From Escherichia coli (GTDB taxonomy: Bacteria > Pseudomonadota > Gammaproteobacteria > Enterobacterales > Enterobacteriaceae), in the NCBI RefSeq assembly GCF_003334255.1, contig NZ_QOWU01000023.1: DNA of 64,000 nucleotides; one strand, 5' to 3'. Position numbers and translations under genes: made by a program. Shown piece by piece: positions 53,535 through 64,000 of the stretch. Position 1 is the first letter of the stretch; every line of letters begins with the position of its first letter. A model generated the notes under the pieces. That model ran no database searches. It worked only from the letters and a program-made list of their open reading frames with translations, and was not told the DNA's origin.

Positions 53535-55214
53535 GTGAACAAAATATTTTCCTCACATGTGATGCCTTTCCGCGCTCTGATCGACGCTTGCTGGAAAGAA
53601 AAATATACTGCCGCACGGTTTACCCGTGACCTGATTGCCGGGATAACCGTCGGGATTATTGCTATCCCGCTGGCGATGGCGTTGGCTATTGGTAGTGGTG
53701 TGGCACCCCAGTACGGTTTATATACCGCAGCTGTTGCGGGGATTGTCATTGCTCTGACGGGTGGGTCACGCTTTAGCGTTTCCGGTCCGACTGCGGCATT
53801 TGTGGTAATTCTCTATCCCGTGTCGCAACAGTTTGGACTGGCAGGACTGCTGGTTGCGACCTTGCTGTCGGGGATCTTTTTGATTCTGATGGGTCTGGCA
53901 CGCTTTGGTCGCCTGATTGAGTATATTCCGGTTTCCGTCACCTTAGGTTTCACCTCGGGTATCGGGATCACCATCGGTACCATGCAGATTAAAGATTTTC
54001 TCGGTCTGCAAATGGCCCATGTCCCGGAACATTATCTACAAAAAGTCGGCGCATTATTTATGGCGCTGCCGACCATTAATGTGGGTGATGCTGCCATTGG
54101 CATTGTGACGCTAGGTATTCTTGTTTTTTGGCCGCGTCTGGGCATTCGTTTACCCGGTCACCTTCCGGCCTTGCTGGCTGGTTGCGCGGTGATGGGGATT
54201 GTTAACCTGCTCGGCGGACATGTTGCTACCATCGGTTCGCAATTCCACTACGTCCTGGCCGATGGTTCTCAGGGTAACGGTATTCCGCAACTGCTGCCGC
54301 AACTGGTGCTGCCGTGGGATCTGCCTAATTCAGAATTCACGCTAACCTGGGATTCTATTCGCACACTGCTGCCTGCGGCATTCTCAATGGCAATGCTCGG
54401 CGCAATCGAATCTCTGCTCTGCGCCGTGGTGCTGGATGGTATGACCGGGACGAAACACAAGGCGAACAGCGAACTGGTTGGACAGGGACTGGGGAATATT
54501 ATCGCTCCGTTCTTTGGTGGTATTACCGCTACAGCTGCCATCGCGCGTTCTGCCGCTAACGTCCGTGCCGGGGCAACGTCCCCTATCTCGGCGGTGATCC
54601 ACTCTATTCTGGTTATTCTTGCCCTGCTGGTACTGGCACCGCTGCTCTCCTGGCTGCCGCTTTCCGCCATGGCAGCCCTGCTGTTGATGGTGGCGTGGAA
54701 CATGAGTGAAGCGCACAAAGTGGTCGACTTGCTGCGTCATGCGCCGAAAGATGACATCATCGTCATGCTGCTGTGCATGTCGCTGACCGTGTTGTTTGAT
54801 ATGGTTATTGCCATCAGCGTGGGGATCGTGCTGGCATCGCTGCTGTTTATGCGTCGTATCGCACGTATGACTCGCCTGGCACCGGTAGTCGTAGATGTTC
54901 CAGACGATGTCCTGGTTCTGCGCGTTATTGGCCCGCTGTTTTTTGCTGCTGCTGAAGGCTTATTCACGGACCTGGAGTCACGTCTTGAAGGCAAACGGAT
55001 TGTGATTCTGAAGTGGGATGCCGTTCCGGTACTTGATGCTGGTGGTCTTGATGCGTTCCAGCGTTTTGTGAAGCGTCTGCCCGAGGGATGTGAACTGCGC
55101 GTGTGCAACGTGGAATTCCAGCCACTGCGCACTATGGCTCGCGCTGGCATTCAACCGATCCCGGGACGCCTGGCGTTCTTCCCGAATCGTCGCGCGGCGA
55201 TGGCGGATTTATAA
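53535..55214 (+). CDS. dauA: SulP-family C4-dicarboxylic acid transporter DauA (YchM)
   Basis: 559-aa ORF with a membrane domain and C-terminal STAS domain. Confidence 0.9.
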
Positions 55215-55223
55215 GTACGAGAT

Positions 55224-55251
55224 TGACCAGTCAGCGCAAACTGACTGGTCA
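55224..55251. terminator. Hairpin between convergent dauA and ychH
   Basis: tgaccagtcag-cgcaaa-ctgactggtca. Confidence 0.55.
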
Positions 55252-55268
55252 GCAAACTGCATTATTTG

Positions 55269-55547
55269 TTAGCTATGACGGCGATTATCGCTACGGCGGC
55301 AACGTTTGTCATAGTGGCGAACCCACCAGTAACGGTCGCACACCTGTTCATGCCCGCCAACACGGGCACCCGCCAGCCAGAGAATGGCACCGACGAAAAT
55401 ACTTAGCACTGCACCATGTGCGAAATACTGGGGCATATTAAACTGTGGTAACTGGTTGAGGATTGAATACCCCACGCCGACCACCATTACCACCAGACCC
55501 AACCCCATGAGCACGTTACCGAGTAACGAAGCGTTTTTGCGTTTCAT
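55269..55547 (-). CDS. ychH: Small inner membrane protein YchH
   Basis: 92-aa ORF with two predicted transmembrane segments; synteny. Confidence 0.8.
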   Translation of the reverse strand: MKRKNASLLGNVLMGLGLVVMVVGVGYSILNQLPQFNMPQYFAHGAVLSIFVGAILWLAGARVGGHEQVCDRYWWVRHYDKRCRRSDNRRHS

Positions 55548-55824
55548 ATGTCACCTCCGGAACTTTCTGGGTTGTAACAGGGAATACCCCTCTTCCTTAT
55601 GTGTAAAGTATAGACAACACCCAGTGGGTTATGTGCGGGCGTGATCACAATTACAACCCTTATTTCAACAAAACTTTACAAATAAACGCCTGAACACCTT
55701 GACTTTCTAATAGTCCACTCAGGCAATTATTACGTTATCTGCATTTGATACGCAGTTTTTTGTCAAGCGGGGCCGCAACCAGTAAACTACGCGCCAGTTA
55801 TGTACACACTCAGGACAAAAAAAC

Positions 55825-56409
55825 GTGACGATTAAATTGATTGTCGGCCTGGCGAACCCCGGTGCTGAATACGCCGCAACGCGACATAATGCTGGTGCCT
55901 GGTTCGTTGACTTACTGGCAGAGCGTTTGCGCGCTCCGCTGCGCGAAGAGGCTAAATTCTTTGGTTATACTTCGCGAGTCACTCTTGGAGGCGAAGATGT
56001 CCGCCTGTTAGTCCCGACTACATTTATGAATCTCAGCGGCAAAGCCGTTGCGGCGATGGCCAGTTTTTTCCGCATTAATCCGGACGAAATTCTGGTGGCC
56101 CACGACGAACTGGATCTGCCTCCTGGCGTCGCCAAATTTAAATTGGGCGGTGGCCATGGTGGTCACAATGGACTGAAAGACATCATCAGTAAATTGGGTA
56201 ATAACCCTAACTTTCACCGTTTACGCATCGGAATCGGTCATCCGGGCGATAAAAATAAAGTTGTCGGTTTTGTGTTAGGCAAACCGCCTGTTAGTGAACA
56301 GAAGTTAATTGATGAAGCCATTGACGAAGCGGCGCGTTGTACTGAAATGTGGTTTACAGATGGCTTGACCAAAGCAACGAACCGATTGCACGCCTTTAAA
56401 GCGCAATAA
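55825..56409 (+). CDS. pth: Peptidyl-tRNA hydrolase
   Basis: 194-aa ORF starting [29 protein letters not shown].... Confidence 0.95.
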
Positions 56410-56525
56410 GTCGTTGTCTGCGGCATTTTTGCCGAGTGCCGTGTATAATAGGCAAAGTTATTTCCATTTCTGCAATCTGTTAGCAATAACAGGTTGATTA
56501 TTAAGATATTAAGGTGATTTAAATC

Positions 56526-57617
56526 ATGGGATTCAAATGCGGTATCGTCGGTTTGCCCAACGTCGGGAAATCTACCCTGTTCAACGCGCTGACCAAAGCC
56601 GGTATTGAAGCGGCCAACTTTCCATTCTGCACCATTGAGCCGAACACAGGCGTCGTACCAATGCCTGATCCTCGCCTGGATCAACTGGCTGAAATCGTAA
56701 AACCGCAGCGTACGCTTCCCACGACCATGGAATTTGTCGATATCGCCGGTCTGGTAAAAGGCGCATCGAAAGGCGAAGGTCTGGGTAACCAGTTCCTGAC
56801 CAACATCCGTGAAACCGAAGCGATCGGTCACGTTGTTCGCTGCTTTGAAAATGACAACATCATTCACGTTTCCGGCAAAGTTAACCCGGCTGACGATATT
56901 GAAGTTATCAACACCGAACTGGCGCTGGCAGACCTCGACACCTGCGAACGTGCGATTCATCGCGTACAGAAGAAAGCCAAAGGTGGCGATAAAGACGCGA
57001 AAGCTGAGCTGGCGGTCCTGGAAAAATGCCTGCCCCAGTTGGAAAATGCAGGTATGCTGCGCGCGCTGGATTTAAGCGCTGAAGAGAAAGCGGCTATTCG
57101 TTACCTGAGCTTCCTGACGCTGAAACCAACAATGTACATCGCCAACGTCAACGAAGACGGTTTTGAAAACAACCCATATCTTGACCAGGTGCGTGAAATC
57201 GCGGCGAAAGAAGGTTCTGTTGTGGTTCCGGTTTGTGCTGCTGTTGAAGCAGACATTGCCGAACTGGACGACGAAGAACGTGACGAGTTTATGCAGGAGC
57301 TTGGGCTGGAAGAGCCGGGCCTGAACCGTGTGATCCGTGCCGGTTATAAACTGCTGAACCTGCAAACTTACTTCACCGCTGGGGTGAAAGAAGTGCGTGC
57401 ATGGACCATTCCGGTTGGAGCAACCGCGCCGCAGGCAGCGGGCAAAATCCATACTGATTTTGAAAAAGGCTTTATCCGTGCACAAACCATCTCGTTTGAA
57501 GATTTCATCACTTACAAAGGTGAACAAGGCGCGAAAGAAGCAGGCAAAATGCGTGCAGAAGGTAAAGATTACATCGTGAAAGATGGCGATGTGATGAACT
57601 TCCTTTTCAACGTCTAA
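56526..57617 (+). CDS. ychF: Ribosome-binding ATPase YchF (Obg-family GTPase)
   Basis: 363-aa ORF starting [23 protein letters not shown].... Confidence 0.95.
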
Positions 57618-57673
57618 TTAATTTATTGTCTCATGAGGTTTCGCTAAATCTCATGAAGAGCGCAAAAGTATAT

Positions 57674-57700
57674 AAAATCCACGCAATTGCGTGGATTTTT
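57674..57700 (+). terminator. ychF rho-independent terminator
   Basis: aaaatccacgc-aatt-gcgtggattttt. Confidence 0.7.
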
Positions 57701-58385
57701 CATTTCACCGAGTCCTAATCATTCTTGTAACATCCTACACTTTTGTGCTTATTGCCTATAGTGAACCACGAGAATAATTAAAGACATAAGTGTTCAGATG
57801 ACGGATATCTCATTAGCAGTGATATAACGTAAGTTTTTGTATCACTACACATCAGCCCCCTTCACAGCTGATCAAAATTGATCACGCTCCAATATGCTGG
57901 CAAGATGAAAATGATAACCAGTAGCACAATAACAACGATAGGCCAGAAAACCCATTGACCAAAAATGAATATCGATGTTTTTTGCTTTTTCTTATTAGTA
58001 ATGCAAAAATGGCGCATATTGTTTTTGTTATGCAGATACATCAAGCGAAATTCCCATAACTAATTAGGATTATTACAAAAAATCTTCACCAAATTTTTTA
58101 ACCGCTGTTTGTTGTAATATTTTTGCCATATTTATAGTAACGAATTGGAATAAGTAACGACAACTTAGGGAATAACTCGATATAAACTCACCTTTGTAAG
58201 GGGGATGTTAAATATATATTAATTCCTGTGTTCCTGATTTTGCCCGGTAATAGAGAATTATTCTCTGAGAAGCTCATCATGATTGCACCATACAAATATC
58301 ATGATGATAAGAGGATATTATTCATTGATTTAAACAAAATGACAAAATCCATAGACCCATAGTCTGGGTACTATATAGGAGTGGT

Positions 58386-61253
58386 ATGGGCATCAAACAA
58401 CACAATGGGAATACCAAAGCAGATCGTCTCGCTGAATTAAAAATCCGTTCGCCCTCAATTCAACTGATAAAATTTGGCGCTATTGGTTTGAATGCAATTA
58501 TCTTTTCCCCCCTGCTGATAGCTGCTGATACAGGAAGTCAATATGGCACCAATATTACTATTAATGATGGTGACAGAATTACAGGAGATACCGCCGATCC
58601 ATCAGGAAACCTCTATGGTGTAATGACCCCAGCAGGAAACACGCCTGGCAATATCAACCTGGGTAATGATGTCACCGTCAATGTCAACGACGCCTCTGGA
58701 TATGCAAAAGGAATCATTATTCAGGGCAAAAACAGCTCCCTGACAGCTAACCGACTCACAGTAGATGTTGTTGGTCAAACCTCTGCCATCGGCATTAACT
58801 TAATTGGTGACTATACCCATGCTGACTTAGGCACAGGCAGCACCATTAAGAGTAACGATGACGGCATCATTATTGGGCATAGCTCAACACTAACAGCCAC
58901 TCAATTCACCATTGAAAACTCGAACGGTATAGGCCTAACCATCAATGACTATGGCACCAGTGTCGATCTTGGAAGCGGAAGTAAAATCACGACCGATGGA
59001 AGTACAGGTGTTTATATCGGTGGTCTCAACGGCAATAACGCCAATGGTGCTGCGCGTTTTACGGCTACAGACCTGACAATCGATGTTCAGGGCTACAGCG
59101 CCATGGGGATAAACGTACAGAAAAACTCTGTTGTCGATCTCGGAACAAACAGTACCATTAAAACCAATGGCGATAATGCTCACGGCCTCTGGAGCTTTGG
59201 CCAGGTTAGCGCGAATGCACTCACTGTTGATGTAACTGGAGCCGCGGCCAATGGCGTCGAAGTTCGTGGTGGTACAACCACTATCGGTGCAGATAGCCAT
59301 ATTTCTTCCGCGCAGGGCGGTGGCCTCGTCACCAGTGGTTCAGACGCGATAATCAATTTTACTGGCACGGCAGCGCAACGAAACAGCATCTTTTCCGGCG
59401 GTTCTTATGGTGCCTCGGCCCAGACGGCAACGGCTGTTGTCAACATGCAAAATACCGATATTACAGTTGATCGTAATGGCAGTCTGGCGCTGGGTTTGTG
59501 GGCTCTCAGCGGCGGTAGAATAACCGGAGACAGTTTGGCTATCACCGGCGCGGCAGGAGCCAGGGGAATTTATGCCATGACCAACAGCCAGATCGACCTC
59601 ACGAGCGATCTGGTCATTGATATGAGTACACCCGACCAGATGGCCATCGCAACGCAACATGACGATGGTTATGCCGCCAGCCGCATCAACGCCTCGGGTC
59701 GTATGCTTATCAACGGTAGCGTTCTTTCCAAAGGTGGGCTAATCAATCTGGATATGCACCCTGGGTCGGTTTGGACAGGTTCCTCCCTCAGCGATAATGT
59801 CAATGGCGGAAAACTGGACGTTGCAATGAATAACAGCGTCTGGAACGTAACAAGTAATTCTAATCTCGACACGCTGGCGCTGAGCCATTCAACTGTCGAT
59901 TTTGCCAGCCACGGGTCAACTGCCGGCACATTTGCCACATTAAACGTAGAGAACCTGAGCGGTAACAGTACCTTTATTATGCGTGCTGATGTTGTTGGCG
60001 AGGGTAATGGCGTTAATAATAAAGGGGATTTATTGAATATCAGCGGGAGTAGTGCTGGTAATCACGTATTGGCTATCCGCAACCAGGGCAGCGAGGCCAC
60101 AACGGGAAATGAAGTTCTGACAGTGGTAAAAACCACTGACGGCGCGGCCTCGTTCAGCGCGTCTTCTCAGGTTGAGTTGGGGGGATATCTGTACGATGTG
60201 CGTAAAAATGGCACTAACTGGGAGCTTTACGCTTCCGGGACAGTTCCGGAACCGACTCCTAATCCTGAACCCACACCAGCTCCCGCTCAGCCTCCCATAG
60301 TCAACCCCGATCCTACGCCTGAACCCGCTCCCACGCCTAAACCCACCACGACCGCAGATGCTGGCGGCAATTATCTCAATGTCGGTTACTTATTGAACTA
60401 TGTTGAAAACCGTACGCTGATGCAACGGATGGGTGACCTGCGAAATCAGAGTAAAGACGGTAATATCTGGTTGCGCAGTTATGGGGGAAGCCTGGACTCC
60501 TTTGCCAGTGGCAAACTGAGCGGCTTTGACATGGGTTACAGCGGTATCCAGTTTGGTGGGGATAAACGTCTCTCTGATGTAATGCCGTTGTATGTCGGTC
60601 TGTATATTGGCTCAACACATGCATCGCCGGACTATAGCGGAGGCGACGGTACCGCACGTTCAGACTACATGGGAATGTACGCCAGTTACATGGCACAAAA
60701 CGGTTTTTACAGCGATCTCGTTATAAAAGCATCGCGCCAGAAAAATAGTTTCCACGTACTGGACAGTCAGAACAACGGCGTTAACGCCAACGGCACTGCG
60801 AATGGAATGAGCATCTCCCTGGAAGCCGGGCAGAGGTTCAACCTGTCCCCTACTGGTTATGGGTTCTATATAGAGCCGCAAACCCAGCTTACATACAGCC
60901 ACCAGAATGAGATGACTATGAAGGCGAGTAATGGCCTCAATATACATCTGAATCACTACGAATCGCTGCTGGGGCGTGCCAGCATGATACTGGGGTATGA
61001 CATCACCGCAGGCAACAGCCAGCTGAATGTCTATGTGAAGACTGGCGCTATCCGCGAGTTTTCAGGGGATACCGAATATCTGTTGAACAACTCCCGGGAG
61101 AAGTACAGTTTCAAAGGTAATGGCTGGAATAACGGCGTGGGAGTCAGTGCACAGTATAACAAACAGCACACATTCTATCTCGAAGCGGATTACACGCAGG
61201 GTAACCTCTTTGATCAGAAGCAAGTCAACGGAGGATATCGCTTCAGCTTTTAA
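58386..61253 (+). CDS. ycgV: Autotransporter (type Va) putative adhesin YcgV
   Basis: 955-aa ORF with a Gly/Thr/Asn-rich repetitive passenger, Pro-rich linker (PEPTPNPEPTPAPAQPPIVNPDPTPEPAPTPKPTT) and C-terminal beta-barrel ending ...GYRFSF. Confidence 0.85.
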   Translation: MGIKQHNGNTKADRLAELKIRSPSIQLIKFGAIGLNAIIFSPLLIAADTGSQYGTNITINDGDRITGDTADPSGNLYGVMTPAGNTPGNINLGNDVTVNVNDASGYAKGIIIQGKNSSLTANRLTVDVVGQTSAIGINLIGDYTHADLGTGSTIKSNDDGIIIGHSSTLTATQFTIENSNGIGLTINDYGTSVDLGSGSKITTDGSTGVYIGGLNGNNANGAARFTATDLTIDVQGYSAMGINVQKNSVVDLGTNSTIKTNGDNAHGLWSFGQVSANALTVDVTGAAANGVEVRGGTTTIGADSHISSAQGGGLVTSGSDAIINFTGTAAQRNSIFSGGSYGASAQTATAVVNMQNTDITVDRNGSLALGLWALSGGRITGDSLAITGAAGARGIYAMTNSQIDLTSDLVIDMSTPDQMAIATQHDDGYAASRINASGRMLINGSVLSKGGLINLDMHPGSVWTGSSLSDNVNGGKLDVAMNNSVWNVTSNSNLDTLALSHSTVDFASHGSTAGTFATLNVENLSGNSTFIMRADVVGEGNGVNNKGDLLNISGSSAGNHVLAIRNQGSEATTGNEVLTVVKTTDGAASFSASSQVELGGYLYDVRKNGTNWELYASGTVPEPTPNPEPTPAPAQPPIVNPDPTPEPAPTPKPTTTADAGGNYLNVGYLLNYVENRTLMQRMGDLRNQSKDGNIWLRSYGGSLDSFASGKLSGFDMGYSGIQFGGDKRLSDVMPLYVGLYIGSTHASPDYSGGDGTARSDYMGMYASYMAQNGFYSDLVIKASRQKNSFHVLDSQNNGVNANGTANGMSISLEAGQRFNLSPTGYGFYIEPQTQLTYSHQNEMTMKASNGLNIHLNHYESLLGRASMILGYDITAGNSQLNVYVKTGAIREFSGDTEYLLNNSREKYSFKGNGWNNGVGVSAQYNKQHTFYLEADYTQGNLFDQKQVNGGYRFSF

Positions 61254-61352
61254 GTGCGGGATAGACAAGCCCTTAAACGATGCTGAAAATTGTTAGCGTG
61301 CGCCGGAATGAAATACAGATCACTCTGATGTATCAGAAATCGTTTCTGTCTT

Positions 61353-63272
61353 TCATACCCGGCGCTTAAACTGCCCTGCATCAATGCCATGTTGCTTCAT
61401 TTTCCGCCACAGCGTAGTGCGGCCGATCCCAAGTAAAGCCGACATTTCCTGAATGCGACCGCCTGTGACCTGGGCTGCGTTAATAATTGCCTCTTTTTCA
61501 ACTTCCGCAAATGACAGACTGGTGGAAAGGCGGGTGGCGCTGACATCATCTGTCGCCTGCTCGGTAAACAGATGTTCCGGCAAATCACTGACGCGAATGC
61601 GCCCGTTATCACTACTCAGAGCAAGATTCTCGATGACGCTGTAAAGTTCAAAATCGTTGCCTGGCCATGCACAAGAAACCAGGCGAGCGAGGGCATCGTC
61701 ATCAATTTTCAGCCGCGTAGAGAAGCGTTTTTCAAGACTGCGTAATTTGTTATTCACCAGCGCCGGAATGCTGCCACGCCGCATACGCAGAGGCGGGATG
61801 GTAATTTCAAATGCATGCAGCGCGTAATACAGCTGGCGACTAAAACGATTTTGTTCCACCAGCATTGCGAGGTCCGCGGTCGTTGTTGCAATCACTTTGA
61901 CATCAATTGGTATTAAACGCCGCGCATCCAGTCGCGTGATAACCCCCTGCTTGATAACCTGAAGCAAAGCAGACTGTAACTCCACCGCCAGATATTCAAT
62001 CTTTTCAAGAAACAGCGTGCCGCCGTGTGCCAGTTCCAGCCGACTCAGACGGCCATTTTCATTGTCCGTGCGATCGCCACCAATAAATTCTTCCGCCAGC
62101 GCAGCATCACCATATAACTCACAATTGACGGCGATATAAGGACCTGCAGCACGCTCGCTTTCATTATGAATTGCCTGACTTAGCAGTGCCTTGCCCACGC
62201 CCTCTTCTCCACAAAGCAGGACAGGAAAGCTACTGCGCGCCGCCTGGCGACCAAAATGAATCAAGCGGCGGGTTTGCGGATCGTCCTGTGGCATATGAGC
62301 GAAGGTATGGCTGACTTTTCCTAATTGACTGGTCATCAACTGCCGCATCTGTTCCACAGGATGGAGCAACAAAATAAAGCTGGTTCCCTGCGTTTCTATT
62401 ATCGGTTTAAGGGTTATCACCGCATCAATAAACTGATGCTGGCTTTCAAAGGTTGCTTCTACGTGTTTGAGCGGATGTGCCTGTTTTATTGCTTGTTGCA
62501 ATACGGCGGGTAACGTTAAGAGTTCAGTGATTGCCCGTCCCTGACTTGCCGTCGCGTCAAGGCGCAAGACCCGCGCCGCCTGGGCATTAATAAATTGCAA
62601 ATTACCCTGCTCGTCCCAGCTAATCACGCCATCATCCATACTTTCTAACAGGGCATTAAGTTGATTTAAATGACGGTTAGTTTCAGCGAGCAAACTGTCC
62701 GTCAGCAGTAAATTTCCGACCTCGCGGGCGATTGCCAACGTCAACGGCAAATCAGCTGCGGTAGTTTGCTCAACCGGACACGCCAGCGCTATTGTTCCCG
62801 TCAATCGGCCCTTGCTGTCAAACAACGGCGTTGCACAAAAGGCCCAGTTCCAGAGTACCTGTTTGAAATGTTGATCGGCCATCGTTTTCACGGCCTGACC
62901 AGAGATAGCCGCTAACGATAGCGCACAAGTACCAATAATTCCCTCGGCGCAATACGTGCCGTCATTGAATCCCAGTGCACTTAGCTGCTGCAAGGTTTGC
63001 GGATCGCCATTACGGCTGAGAATGCAGGCGGTTTCATCGAGGATAAACAGCGCACACTCTCGCGGTGCCATATATTCCCAGGCATCTTCCAGCGCAGCCT
63101 GCCCGAGCGTCAGCATCGCTTTCTTACGCCGATAAATAGAAGCAAATGTCACGCCCTGGGCCTGATGTGGTACGTTCCATGTCTCCCGTTTCATCAGCTT
63201 ATTGCATCGCTCCCAGGAGGTTGCAATTAAGGGAGATATGCCCCGACCATCGTTGTTAAAAGCGCCACTCAT
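61353..63272 (-). CDS. dhaR: Sigma-54-independent transcriptional activator of the dha operon, DhaR
   Basis: AAA+ core and C-terminal helix-turn-helix; start set to MSGAFNNDGRG... (639 aa); divergent from dhaK. Confidence 0.85.
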   Translation of the reverse strand: MSGAFNNDGRGISPLIATSWERCNKLMKRETWNVPHQAQGVTFASIYRRKKAMLTLGQAALEDAWEYMAPRECALFILDETACILSRNGDPQTLQQLSALGFNDGTYCAEGIIGTCALSLAAISGQAVKTMADQHFKQVLWNWAFCATPLFDSKGRLTGTIALACPVEQTTAADLPLTLAIAREVGNLLLTDSLLAETNRHLNQLNALLESMDDGVISWDEQGNLQFINAQAARVLRLDATASQGRAITELLTLPAVLQQAIKQAHPLKHVEATFESQHQFIDAVITLKPIIETQGTSFILLLHPVEQMRQLMTSQLGKVSHTFAHMPQDDPQTRRLIHFGRQAARSSFPVLLCGEEGVGKALLSQAIHNESERAAGPYIAVNCELYGDAALAEEFIGGDRTDNENGRLSRLELAHGGTLFLEKIEYLAVELQSALLQVIKQGVITRLDARRLIPIDVKVIATTTADLAMLVEQNRFSRQLYYALHAFEITIPPLRMRRGSIPALVNNKLRSLEKRFSTRLKIDDDALARLVSCAWPGNDFELYSVIENLALSSDNGRIRVSDLPEHLFTEQATDDVSATRLSTSLSFAEVEKEAIINAAQVTGGRIQEMSALLGIGRTTLWRKMKQHGIDAGQFKRRV

Positions 63273-63499
63273 ATCCCGCATCCCTTATGACAAAAGGTGT
63301 TCCGGCTCGCAATTTTAAGTATTAATACACGTAAAAGTTTCAATATGGAACATTCATTAAAGCATATGTTTCACTATGAAACATAATTTGGGCTAATTTT
63401 CTTTTCCCTTGCCTGATGCACAATGGATTCATCGGCAGTCAGTGGTCGCCGTGTCGTTGAACATCATCCATGCCCTACCGTAATTGCTGGAGCAAAATA

Positions 63500-64000
63500 A
63501 TGAAAAAATTGATCAATGATGTGCAAGACGTACTGGACGAACAACTGGCAGGACTGGCGAAAGCGCATCCATCGCTGACACTGCATCAGGATCCGGTGTA
63601 TGTCACCCGAGCTGATGCCCCTGTTGCAGGAAAAGTCGCCCTGCTGTCGGGTGGCGGCAGCGGACACGAGCCGATGCACTGTGGTTATATCGGTCAGGGG
63701 ATGCTTTCGGGGGCCTGTCCGGGCGAAATTTTCACCTCACCGACGCCCGATAAAATCTTTGAATGCGCCATGCAAGTTGATGGCGGCGAAGGTGTACTGT
63801 TGATTATCAAAAATTACACCGGCGATATTCTTAACTTTGAAACAGCGACCGAGTTACTGCACGATAGCGGCGTAAAAGTGACCACTGTGGTCATTGATGA
63901 CGACGTTGCGGTAAAAGACAGTCTTTATACTGCCGGGCGACGCGGCGTTGCCAACACCGTATTAATTGAAAAACTCGTAGGCGCAGCGGCGGAGCGTGGC
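63500..64000 (+). CDS. dhaK: Dihydroxyacetone kinase subunit DhaK, 5' part (truncated by the window end)
   Basis: ATG at 63500 opens [60 protein letters not shown]... and the frame runs to the window end. Confidence 0.9.

Follow-up and report, generated by a model that had tools for sequence, protein, structure and literature searches.

The gene at positions 58386–61253 (plus strand) of the stretch of Escherichia coli DNA analysed here (64,000 nucleotides of contig NZ_QOWU01000023.1, assembly GCF_003334255.1; hereafter the window) is, by its sequence, ycgV in the intact reference allele of K-12. We consider it highly probable (about 95%) that ycgV is a chromosomal gene, variable between strains, whose product is an adhesin of the classical type Va autotransporter class, that the allele in the window is the intact K-12 one and that it is nearly silent in ordinary culture. 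Earlier publications already cover the gene and its family, the cryptic expression and the biofilm phenotype, and nothing about them is new here; as the reference allele of a catalogued gene, ycgV in the window matters little for discovery. A length variation that resides in the linker and not in the passenger, a long putative leader of conserved length across genera and the behaviour of ycgV as an optional cassette may be of use for surface display with YcgV or for adhesin typing of E. coli.

Identity and domain anatomy of ycgV

The listing of open reading frames (ORFs) gives at these positions one uninterrupted frame from ATG to stop, of 955 amino acids (aa), and this coding sequence (CDS) is identical at 2868 of 2868 nucleotides (nt) to ycgV of MG1655 (b1202; NC_000913.3 1253085–1255952, minus strand), where it is annotated as "putative autotransporter adhesin YcgV". 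The encoded protein we take to be UniProt P76017, YcgV of E. coli K-12 MG1655. The gene order is also that of NC_000913.3, with dauA-ychH-pth-ychF upstream and the convergent dhaR downstream. The features of the gene are as follows.

58386–61253, plus strand: ycgV coding sequence, 955 codons plus stop, intact, 100% identical to MG1655 b1202
58377–58381, plus strand: Shine-Dalgarno sequence AGGAG, 4 nt before the ycgV ATG, read off the sequence
58386–58523, plus strand: probable extended Sec signal peptide, aa 1–46, with a charged n-region of 29 aa and a hydrophobic core at aa 30–46
58507–58530, plus strand: C6 tract (58507–58512) and 10-bp direct repeat CTGCTGATAG in 1.9 copies (58512–58530), leader coding, Tandem Repeats Finder
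58524–60239, plus strand: passenger domain, aa 47–618, modelled as a right-handed parallel beta-helix
58737–59348, plus strand: four degenerate repeat units of 48–57 aa (aa 118–167, 168–224, 225–273 and 274–321), stacked with MAFFT
59865–60230, plus strand: pertactin-type C-terminal passenger domain (autochaperone-like), aa 494–615, Pfam PF03212
60240–60350, plus strand: proline-rich linker, aa 619–655, 43% Pro, TVPEPTPNPEPTPAPAQPPIVNPDPTPEPAPTPKPTT
60306–60344, plus strand: 18-bp tandem unit in 2.2 copies within the linker, Tandem Repeats Finder; other alleles have one more unit (+6 aa)
60348–60431, plus strand: alpha-helical segment predicted to precede and plug the barrel, aa 655–682, AlphaFold2
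60459–61250, plus strand: C-terminal outer-membrane beta-barrel, aa ~692–955, ending YRFSF
60607–60623, plus strand (sense): published intragenic sigma54 binding motif TTGGCTCAACACATGCA, exact match, barrel-coding part

The original prediction had described a YcgV-type autotransporter with a Pro-rich linker at about 60240–60350 and a passenger rich in Gly, Thr and Asn that resembles a beta-helix, and had asked whether the gene is intact. It is, and the description was borne out, the linker falling exactly on those positions. The profile search for an autotransporter beta-barrel that had been set beforehand as the refuting test found one: Pfam PF03797 (Autotransporter) matches aa 694–935 over its full model (1.6e-37), and NCBIfam TIGR01414 matches aa 513–955 at 2.1e-107, with 359.9 bits against a cutoff of 16. 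The protein ends in ...GGYRFSF, and its final F, the aromatic residue of the signal read by the beta-barrel assembly machinery (BAM), is kept in at least 90% of 51 homologues. The closest solved relatives in a sequence search of the PDB were Vag8 (5.7e-25), the BrkA barrel (1.2e-23), EspP, pertactin and Hbp. The pertactin-type domain was recognised by Pfam PF03212 (1.4e-37, positions 1–120 of the 121 of the model), and pertactin itself in the PDB matches aa 478–616 at 4e-11.

An AlphaFold2 model built on the 51 homologues has a mean predicted local distance difference test (pLDDT) score of 85.8. In it aa ~48–618 form one continuous all-beta solenoid of 56 short strands (aa 56 to 616), mostly with pLDDT above 90 and with about 24 residues per three-strand rung; the composition of this part (aa 48–618) is 14.4% G, 10.7% T, 10.7% S and 9.6% N. 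The linker at aa 620–648 has pLDDT below 50 and is disordered, and it gave weak matches to the PARP and TonB polyproline families in the Pfam search. Helices at aa 655–661, 663–674 and 678–682 lie directly before barrel strand 1. The modelled barrel agrees with those of EspP, Hbp and BrkA (Foldseek template modelling (TM) score 0.84–0.90), and the model superposes on the transport units of pre-cleavage EspP, Hbp and AIDA-I, with alignments of 310 residues to pre-cleavage EspP (3slo) and 281 to the AIDA-I transport unit (4mee). In the model a barrel, a helix, a disordered Pro-rich spacer, a pertactin-type domain and a beta-helix are thus shown to be present in YcgV, which is a type Va autotransporter by every testable defining feature except a direct signal-peptide call.

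The passenger had also been called repetitive. At the protein level this stands in a weak form: four units of 48–57 aa were found when the sequence was stacked by hand and with MAFFT, after automatic self-comparison had failed to reveal them. They share the pattern (L/F)TAxxLT(I/V)(D/E)V..G....G(I/V)....xDLG(T/S)xSxI.(T/S), of which the motif xDLG(T/S)xSxI recurs at aa 146, 193 and 250, and each spans about two rungs of the helix in the model. Their pairwise identity is 20–52%, or 32–52% in all pairs save the second and fourth (B and D). At the DNA level it does not stand: in the passenger, repeat finders returned short matches of chance level only. Of the automatic comparisons of the protein with itself, self-BLASTP of the passenger produced no match off the diagonal, and a BLOSUM offset autocorrelation had only weak peaks at offsets 31, 47 and 49 (maximum z 2.9), with no periodicity of ~19 aa in the offset scan. 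The passenger is repetitive only in a weak, ancient sense.

Some observations concern the surroundings. Over positions 55000–64000 the window differs from MG1655 at two bases only, 57801 in the spacer between ychF and ycgV (A in the window, C in MG1655; the window base is common to four other aligned strains) and 62436 in dhaR (A in the window, G in MG1655; synonymous). The window therefore comes from a very close relative of MG1655 and not from MG1655 itself. A terminator scan 3' of ycgV found none, and PADLOC returned no match for YcgV or for two small ORFs (neighbouring or alternative). The sigma54 binding motif in the barrel-coding part is site IS15 of a published set (PMC4591121), and a listed GalR site in ycgV was set aside as an in-silico score only.

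The leader and the upstream region

Residues 1–29 of YcgV are polar and charged, hydropathy peaks at aa 30–47 and the sequence then continues AADTGSQ; the model is disordered over aa 1–45 (pLDDT below 50). The orthologues of Citrobacter, Leminorella, Morganella, Pragia and their relatives have a leader of the same length, 56 residues to a common column, and these leaders end VQA/AD, AQA/AD or ALA/AD before an almost invariant GSQ, a conserved junction of the pattern AxA/A(D)xGSQ. In Pantoea an ordinary signal peptide of about 30 residues ends at the same point (SSA/AVVGSQ). From these alignments we infer an extended Sec signal peptide that would be cleaved after Ala46 (LIA/AD). Both the Shine-Dalgarno sequence and the conserved leader favour the start codon as annotated.

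The leader is long like ESPR leaders but of a different sequence; the ESPR profile itself (Pfam PF13018) is listed for P0083 and P0084, two distant homologues. It is conceivable, if doubtful, that the YcgV leader of 46–47 residues represents an extended kind of autotransporter signal peptide distinct from ESPR and so far not recognised as a class, which might slow or re-route targeting to the inner membrane, and that the C6 tract together with the 10-bp repeat in its coding sequence is a recurrent site of on/off mutation.

The DNA between ychF and ycgV is AT-rich, with a GC content of 0.33–0.37 in 500-bp windows versus about 0.50 in the flanking genes and in ycgV. Three features lie here.

57618–58385, no strand: ychF-ycgV intergenic region, AT-rich regulatory region of ycgV, 768 bp
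about 57928–58228, no strand: published "promoter island" (U00096.2 1255333, 301 bp), probable position after conversion of coordinates with the sigma54 site as anchor
58260–58385, plus strand: 126-bp fragment bound by YbdO in an electrophoretic mobility shift assay; both primers match exactly, at 58260–58279 (plus) and 58366–58385 (minus)

The island is the entry ycgV(-)ychF(-) in Table 1 of PMC3661553, one of 78 promoter islands, and it stands in the H-NS association table; such islands bind RNA polymerase and are transcriptionally silent. The poor expression of ycgV in K-12, to which the original prediction alluded, agrees with this listing. In an avian pathogenic E. coli (APEC) strain, YbdO, a LysR-type regulator, represses ycgV about 3–4-fold and shifts the 126-bp probe, and ycgV transcripts are measurable and regulated there (PMC11681634). 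A stringent sigma70 scan gave 4 sites overall versus 7.8 in shuffles and no plus-strand site in the spacer, and for this reason no ycgV promoter is named.

The spacer in the window is of the K-12 type and lacks a 75-bp piece present in other strains. Direct repeats of the form CTGGCRAGA (CTGGCGAGA and CTGGCAAGA) flank the missing piece, whose junction is at 57896/57897, an arrangement suggestive of deletion by slippage. The 75 bp are kept in O121, O157, HZDC01 and 10035210-2 (compare L002 797–871). Of 30 rows in a spread sample of 5,288 matching records, 9 are collinear with the short form, so it is common and not confined to K-12.

Two further elements of the spacer were noted. At 57674–57699, 57 nt after the ychF stop, a hairpin with an 11-bp stem (AAAATCCACGCAATTGCGTGGATTTT) is flanked on either side by T/A runs; this probable terminator of ychF would insulate ycgV from read-through. 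On the minus strand, 57862–58044 is an unannotated ORF of 60 aa with one strongly hydrophobic helix (IFIFGQWVFWPIVVIVLLVIIFILP), which in strains that keep the 75 bp has 68 aa and a different C-terminus. This ORF has no RefSeq annotation and no PADLOC match and may be a chance ORF in AT-rich DNA.

Alleles and distribution in E. coli

The CDS was matched in 4,119 of 5,426 complete E. coli genomes (~76%), always with at least 95% identity, and 3,936 of them carry at least 80% of it. Allele classes were determined in 60 of the 4,120 matching records, sampled at even spacing, with the following counts.

2868 nt: 35
2886 nt: 16
IS1 or ISSen4 insertion: 4
O157:H7, first 1631 nt only: 2
118-nt remnant beside IS1: 1
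1-nt deletion: 1
net +8 nt (10 nt lost, 18 nt gained): 1

The original prediction had stated that passenger repeat content varies between strains and had asked whether the repeats here differ from reference alleles. Alignment to K-12 answered the question, the gene in the window being the reference allele, and the statement was largely not borne out. The sole recurrent length difference in the sample is one 18-bp (6-aa) unit of the linker, outside the passenger: the 2886-nt class has one extra unit (+PDPTPN/T) relative to the 2868-nt class, and the passengers are collinear with scattered substitutions only. The 955-aa alleles are 99–100% identical to the window and the 961-aa alleles about 98%. 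Among the entries of a large protein database, the passenger has in-frame deletions of 57, 78, 76 and 130 aa in one sequence each, and the shortest of these, of 57 aa, takes out precisely one repeat unit (VDLGSGS...VDLGTNS). Judging from these sequences, variation of passenger repeat content is possible but rare, and the common polymorphism is in the linker. The protein cluster P0006 (867 aa, truncated barrel, 3,116 members) was considered as a common frameshift allele; no such length occurs in the 60 sampled genomes, and a cluster made at 90% may contain full-length proteins although its representative is truncated, so this reading was rejected.

Two alleles of the sample are frameshifted in the leader. 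In WP8-S17-ESBL-05 the C6 tract at 58507–58512 has become C5, and in O157:H7 FRIK2455, annotated as frameshifted, one copy of the 10-bp repeat (58512–58530) is lost and a linker unit is gained. That two independent frameshifts fall within the same 24 bp, and that the only common length polymorphism is plus or minus one 18-bp unit, could be read as the mark of a contingency device, in which the C6 tract and the 10-bp duplication switch ycgV on and off and the 18-bp unit tunes the length of the linker. We regard this as very improbable. Known phase-variable genes have much longer tracts than the 6 C's, 1.9 copies and 2.2 copies present here, frameshifts occur in only 2 of the 60 sampled genomes, and the change from C6 to C5 could be a homopolymer error of a long-read assembly. 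The 955-aa and 961-aa alleles moreover follow overall divergence, and thus look like lineage markers and not like the outcome of frequent switching.

The gene is often disrupted by insertion sequence (IS) elements, frameshifts or deletions. In E. coli O157 AR-0429 a deletion extends from codon 543 of ycgV across all of dhaR (L005 6862–8840), and the nearby treA is also frameshifted in this strain. The O157 genomes examined carry this deletion, except FRIK2455 with its frameshifted full-length copy; it leaves dhaKLM without their regulator. Strains without ycgV have one of two arrangements. In 2014C-3075 the gap between ychF and dhaR is an unrelated spacer of ~400 bp (L007 6590–6993) with an ORF of 58 aa, annotated as hypothetical, that has a lipoprotein-like leader (…LLSAC) and a His/Pro/Gly-rich tail. 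In AJ5 an island led by a tyrosine integrase follows directly after ychF (L006 8232–16137), with an AAA ATPase, a helix-turn-helix protein and a DEAD/DEAH helicase as cargo; it may be a defence or mobile island. The locus thus holds alternative cassettes and is not the site of a simple deletion, and these two arrangements indicate that ycgV behaves as an optional cassette.

Function and relation to known autotransporters

According to the passages on YcgV in PMC3796261 and PMC9289746, expression of ycgV from a constitutive promoter results in adhesion and biofilm formation, and the former passage, citing Roux et al. (2005), has YfaL, YpjA and YcgV involved in initial adhesion as well as in biofilm formation. 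The C-terminal part of YcgV is a working anchor for surface display when it is given a signal peptide (PMC13101318). In biofilm-evolved populations of delta-fim MG1655, ycgV mutations arose (PMC10117834), and two scans flagged the gene as positively selected (PMC9110714).

With family knowledge as a guide, the route of YcgV to the surface may be pictured as follows. The extended leader of 46 residues would take the precursor through Sec, and BAM would insert the C-terminal ~265 residues into the outer membrane, where they form a barrel of 12 strands whose pore holds an alpha-helix. The passenger would be threaded out C-terminus first, with a hairpin and secretion from C to N, so that the pertactin-type end (aa 494–615) would fold first and template the right-handed beta-helix of ~570 residues. 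The proline-rich spacer of 37 residues would hold the helix off the barrel, and the helix so displayed would mediate adhesion to surfaces and biofilm formation. The near-silence of ycgV in ordinary culture would be due to the upstream promoter island associated with H-NS and to repression by YbdO.

Several points weigh against the reading of YcgV as a classical adhesin that is silent but functional. SignalP 6.0 gave a score below 0.5, and a surface-display study of 2026 called YcgV "leaderless" (PMC13101318); its reporters were fused upstream of the scaffold, so that the native leader is not at the N-terminus there. The ESPR profile is not among the profile matches of YcgV. DSSP gives 12–13 strand segments in the barrel, the number varying with the treatment of two kinked strands. 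The adhesion phenotype is taken at second hand from reviews that cite Roux et al. (2005), the self-association proposed for YcgV is by analogy with the self-associating autotransporters (SAATs) (PMC9289746), and silencing by H-NS is deduced from tables based on chromatin immunoprecipitation.

Some of these points could be taken to mean that ycgV of K-12 is a decaying and effectively dead gene, with a defective leader and a permanently silenced promoter, whose product is never exported or used. The lack of a SignalP call is in line with this, as is the residue at -3 of the probable cleavage site, which is Leu in E. coli versus Val or Ala in Leminorella and Morganella. So are the description of the upstream region as transcriptionally silent, the 4 IS1 or ISSen4 insertions, 2 frameshifts and 3 deletions (3' or larger) among the 60 sampled genomes, and the about 24% of genomes without ycgV. 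On the other hand the ORF is unbroken through all 955 codons, and identity among the common alleles exceeds 97%, which argues for continuing constraint. The reported gain of adhesion and biofilm came from chromosomal expression with the protein's own N-terminus, in so far as the passages cited above describe it, and the regulated transcripts in APEC, the two selection scans and the mutations in evolved biofilms also speak against a dead gene. We hold decay to be quite unlikely.

Among known autotransporters, AIDA-I, Ag43 and TibA (the SAATs) have the type Va layout and the biofilm phenotype in common with YcgV, and all are placed with it in phylogenetic Group 4, in a survey stating that no structure of YcgV exists (PMC9289746). 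The label "AIDA-like" in the original prediction holds only in a broad sense, since the likeness does not extend to the short consensus repeats. Passengers of the AIDA-I type have many such repeats of ~19 aa, where YcgV has four degenerate units of 48–57 aa, and no AIDA or PATR Pfam match was found in YcgV at E≤10. Unlike in the AIDA-I/Ag43/TibA group, a glycosyltransferase gene is not adjacent, the neighbours being ychF and dhaR. UpaB, an autotransporter adhesin of uropathogenic E. coli, binds fibronectin and glycosaminoglycan; its locus and ligands differ from those of YcgV. Pertactin, BrkA and Vag8 of Bordetella have, like YcgV, a Pertactin domain at the C-terminus of the passenger and a proline-rich region nearby. 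Their passengers are only 13–23% identical to that of YcgV, the leader differs, and YcgV is not known to have an RGD, C1-inhibitor-binding or serum-resistance function. The BrkA barrel is 26–27% identical to the YcgV barrel with a TM score of 0.88–0.90, and by sequence and fold YcgV resembles the pertactin/Vag8/BrkA group more than it does AIDA-I proper.

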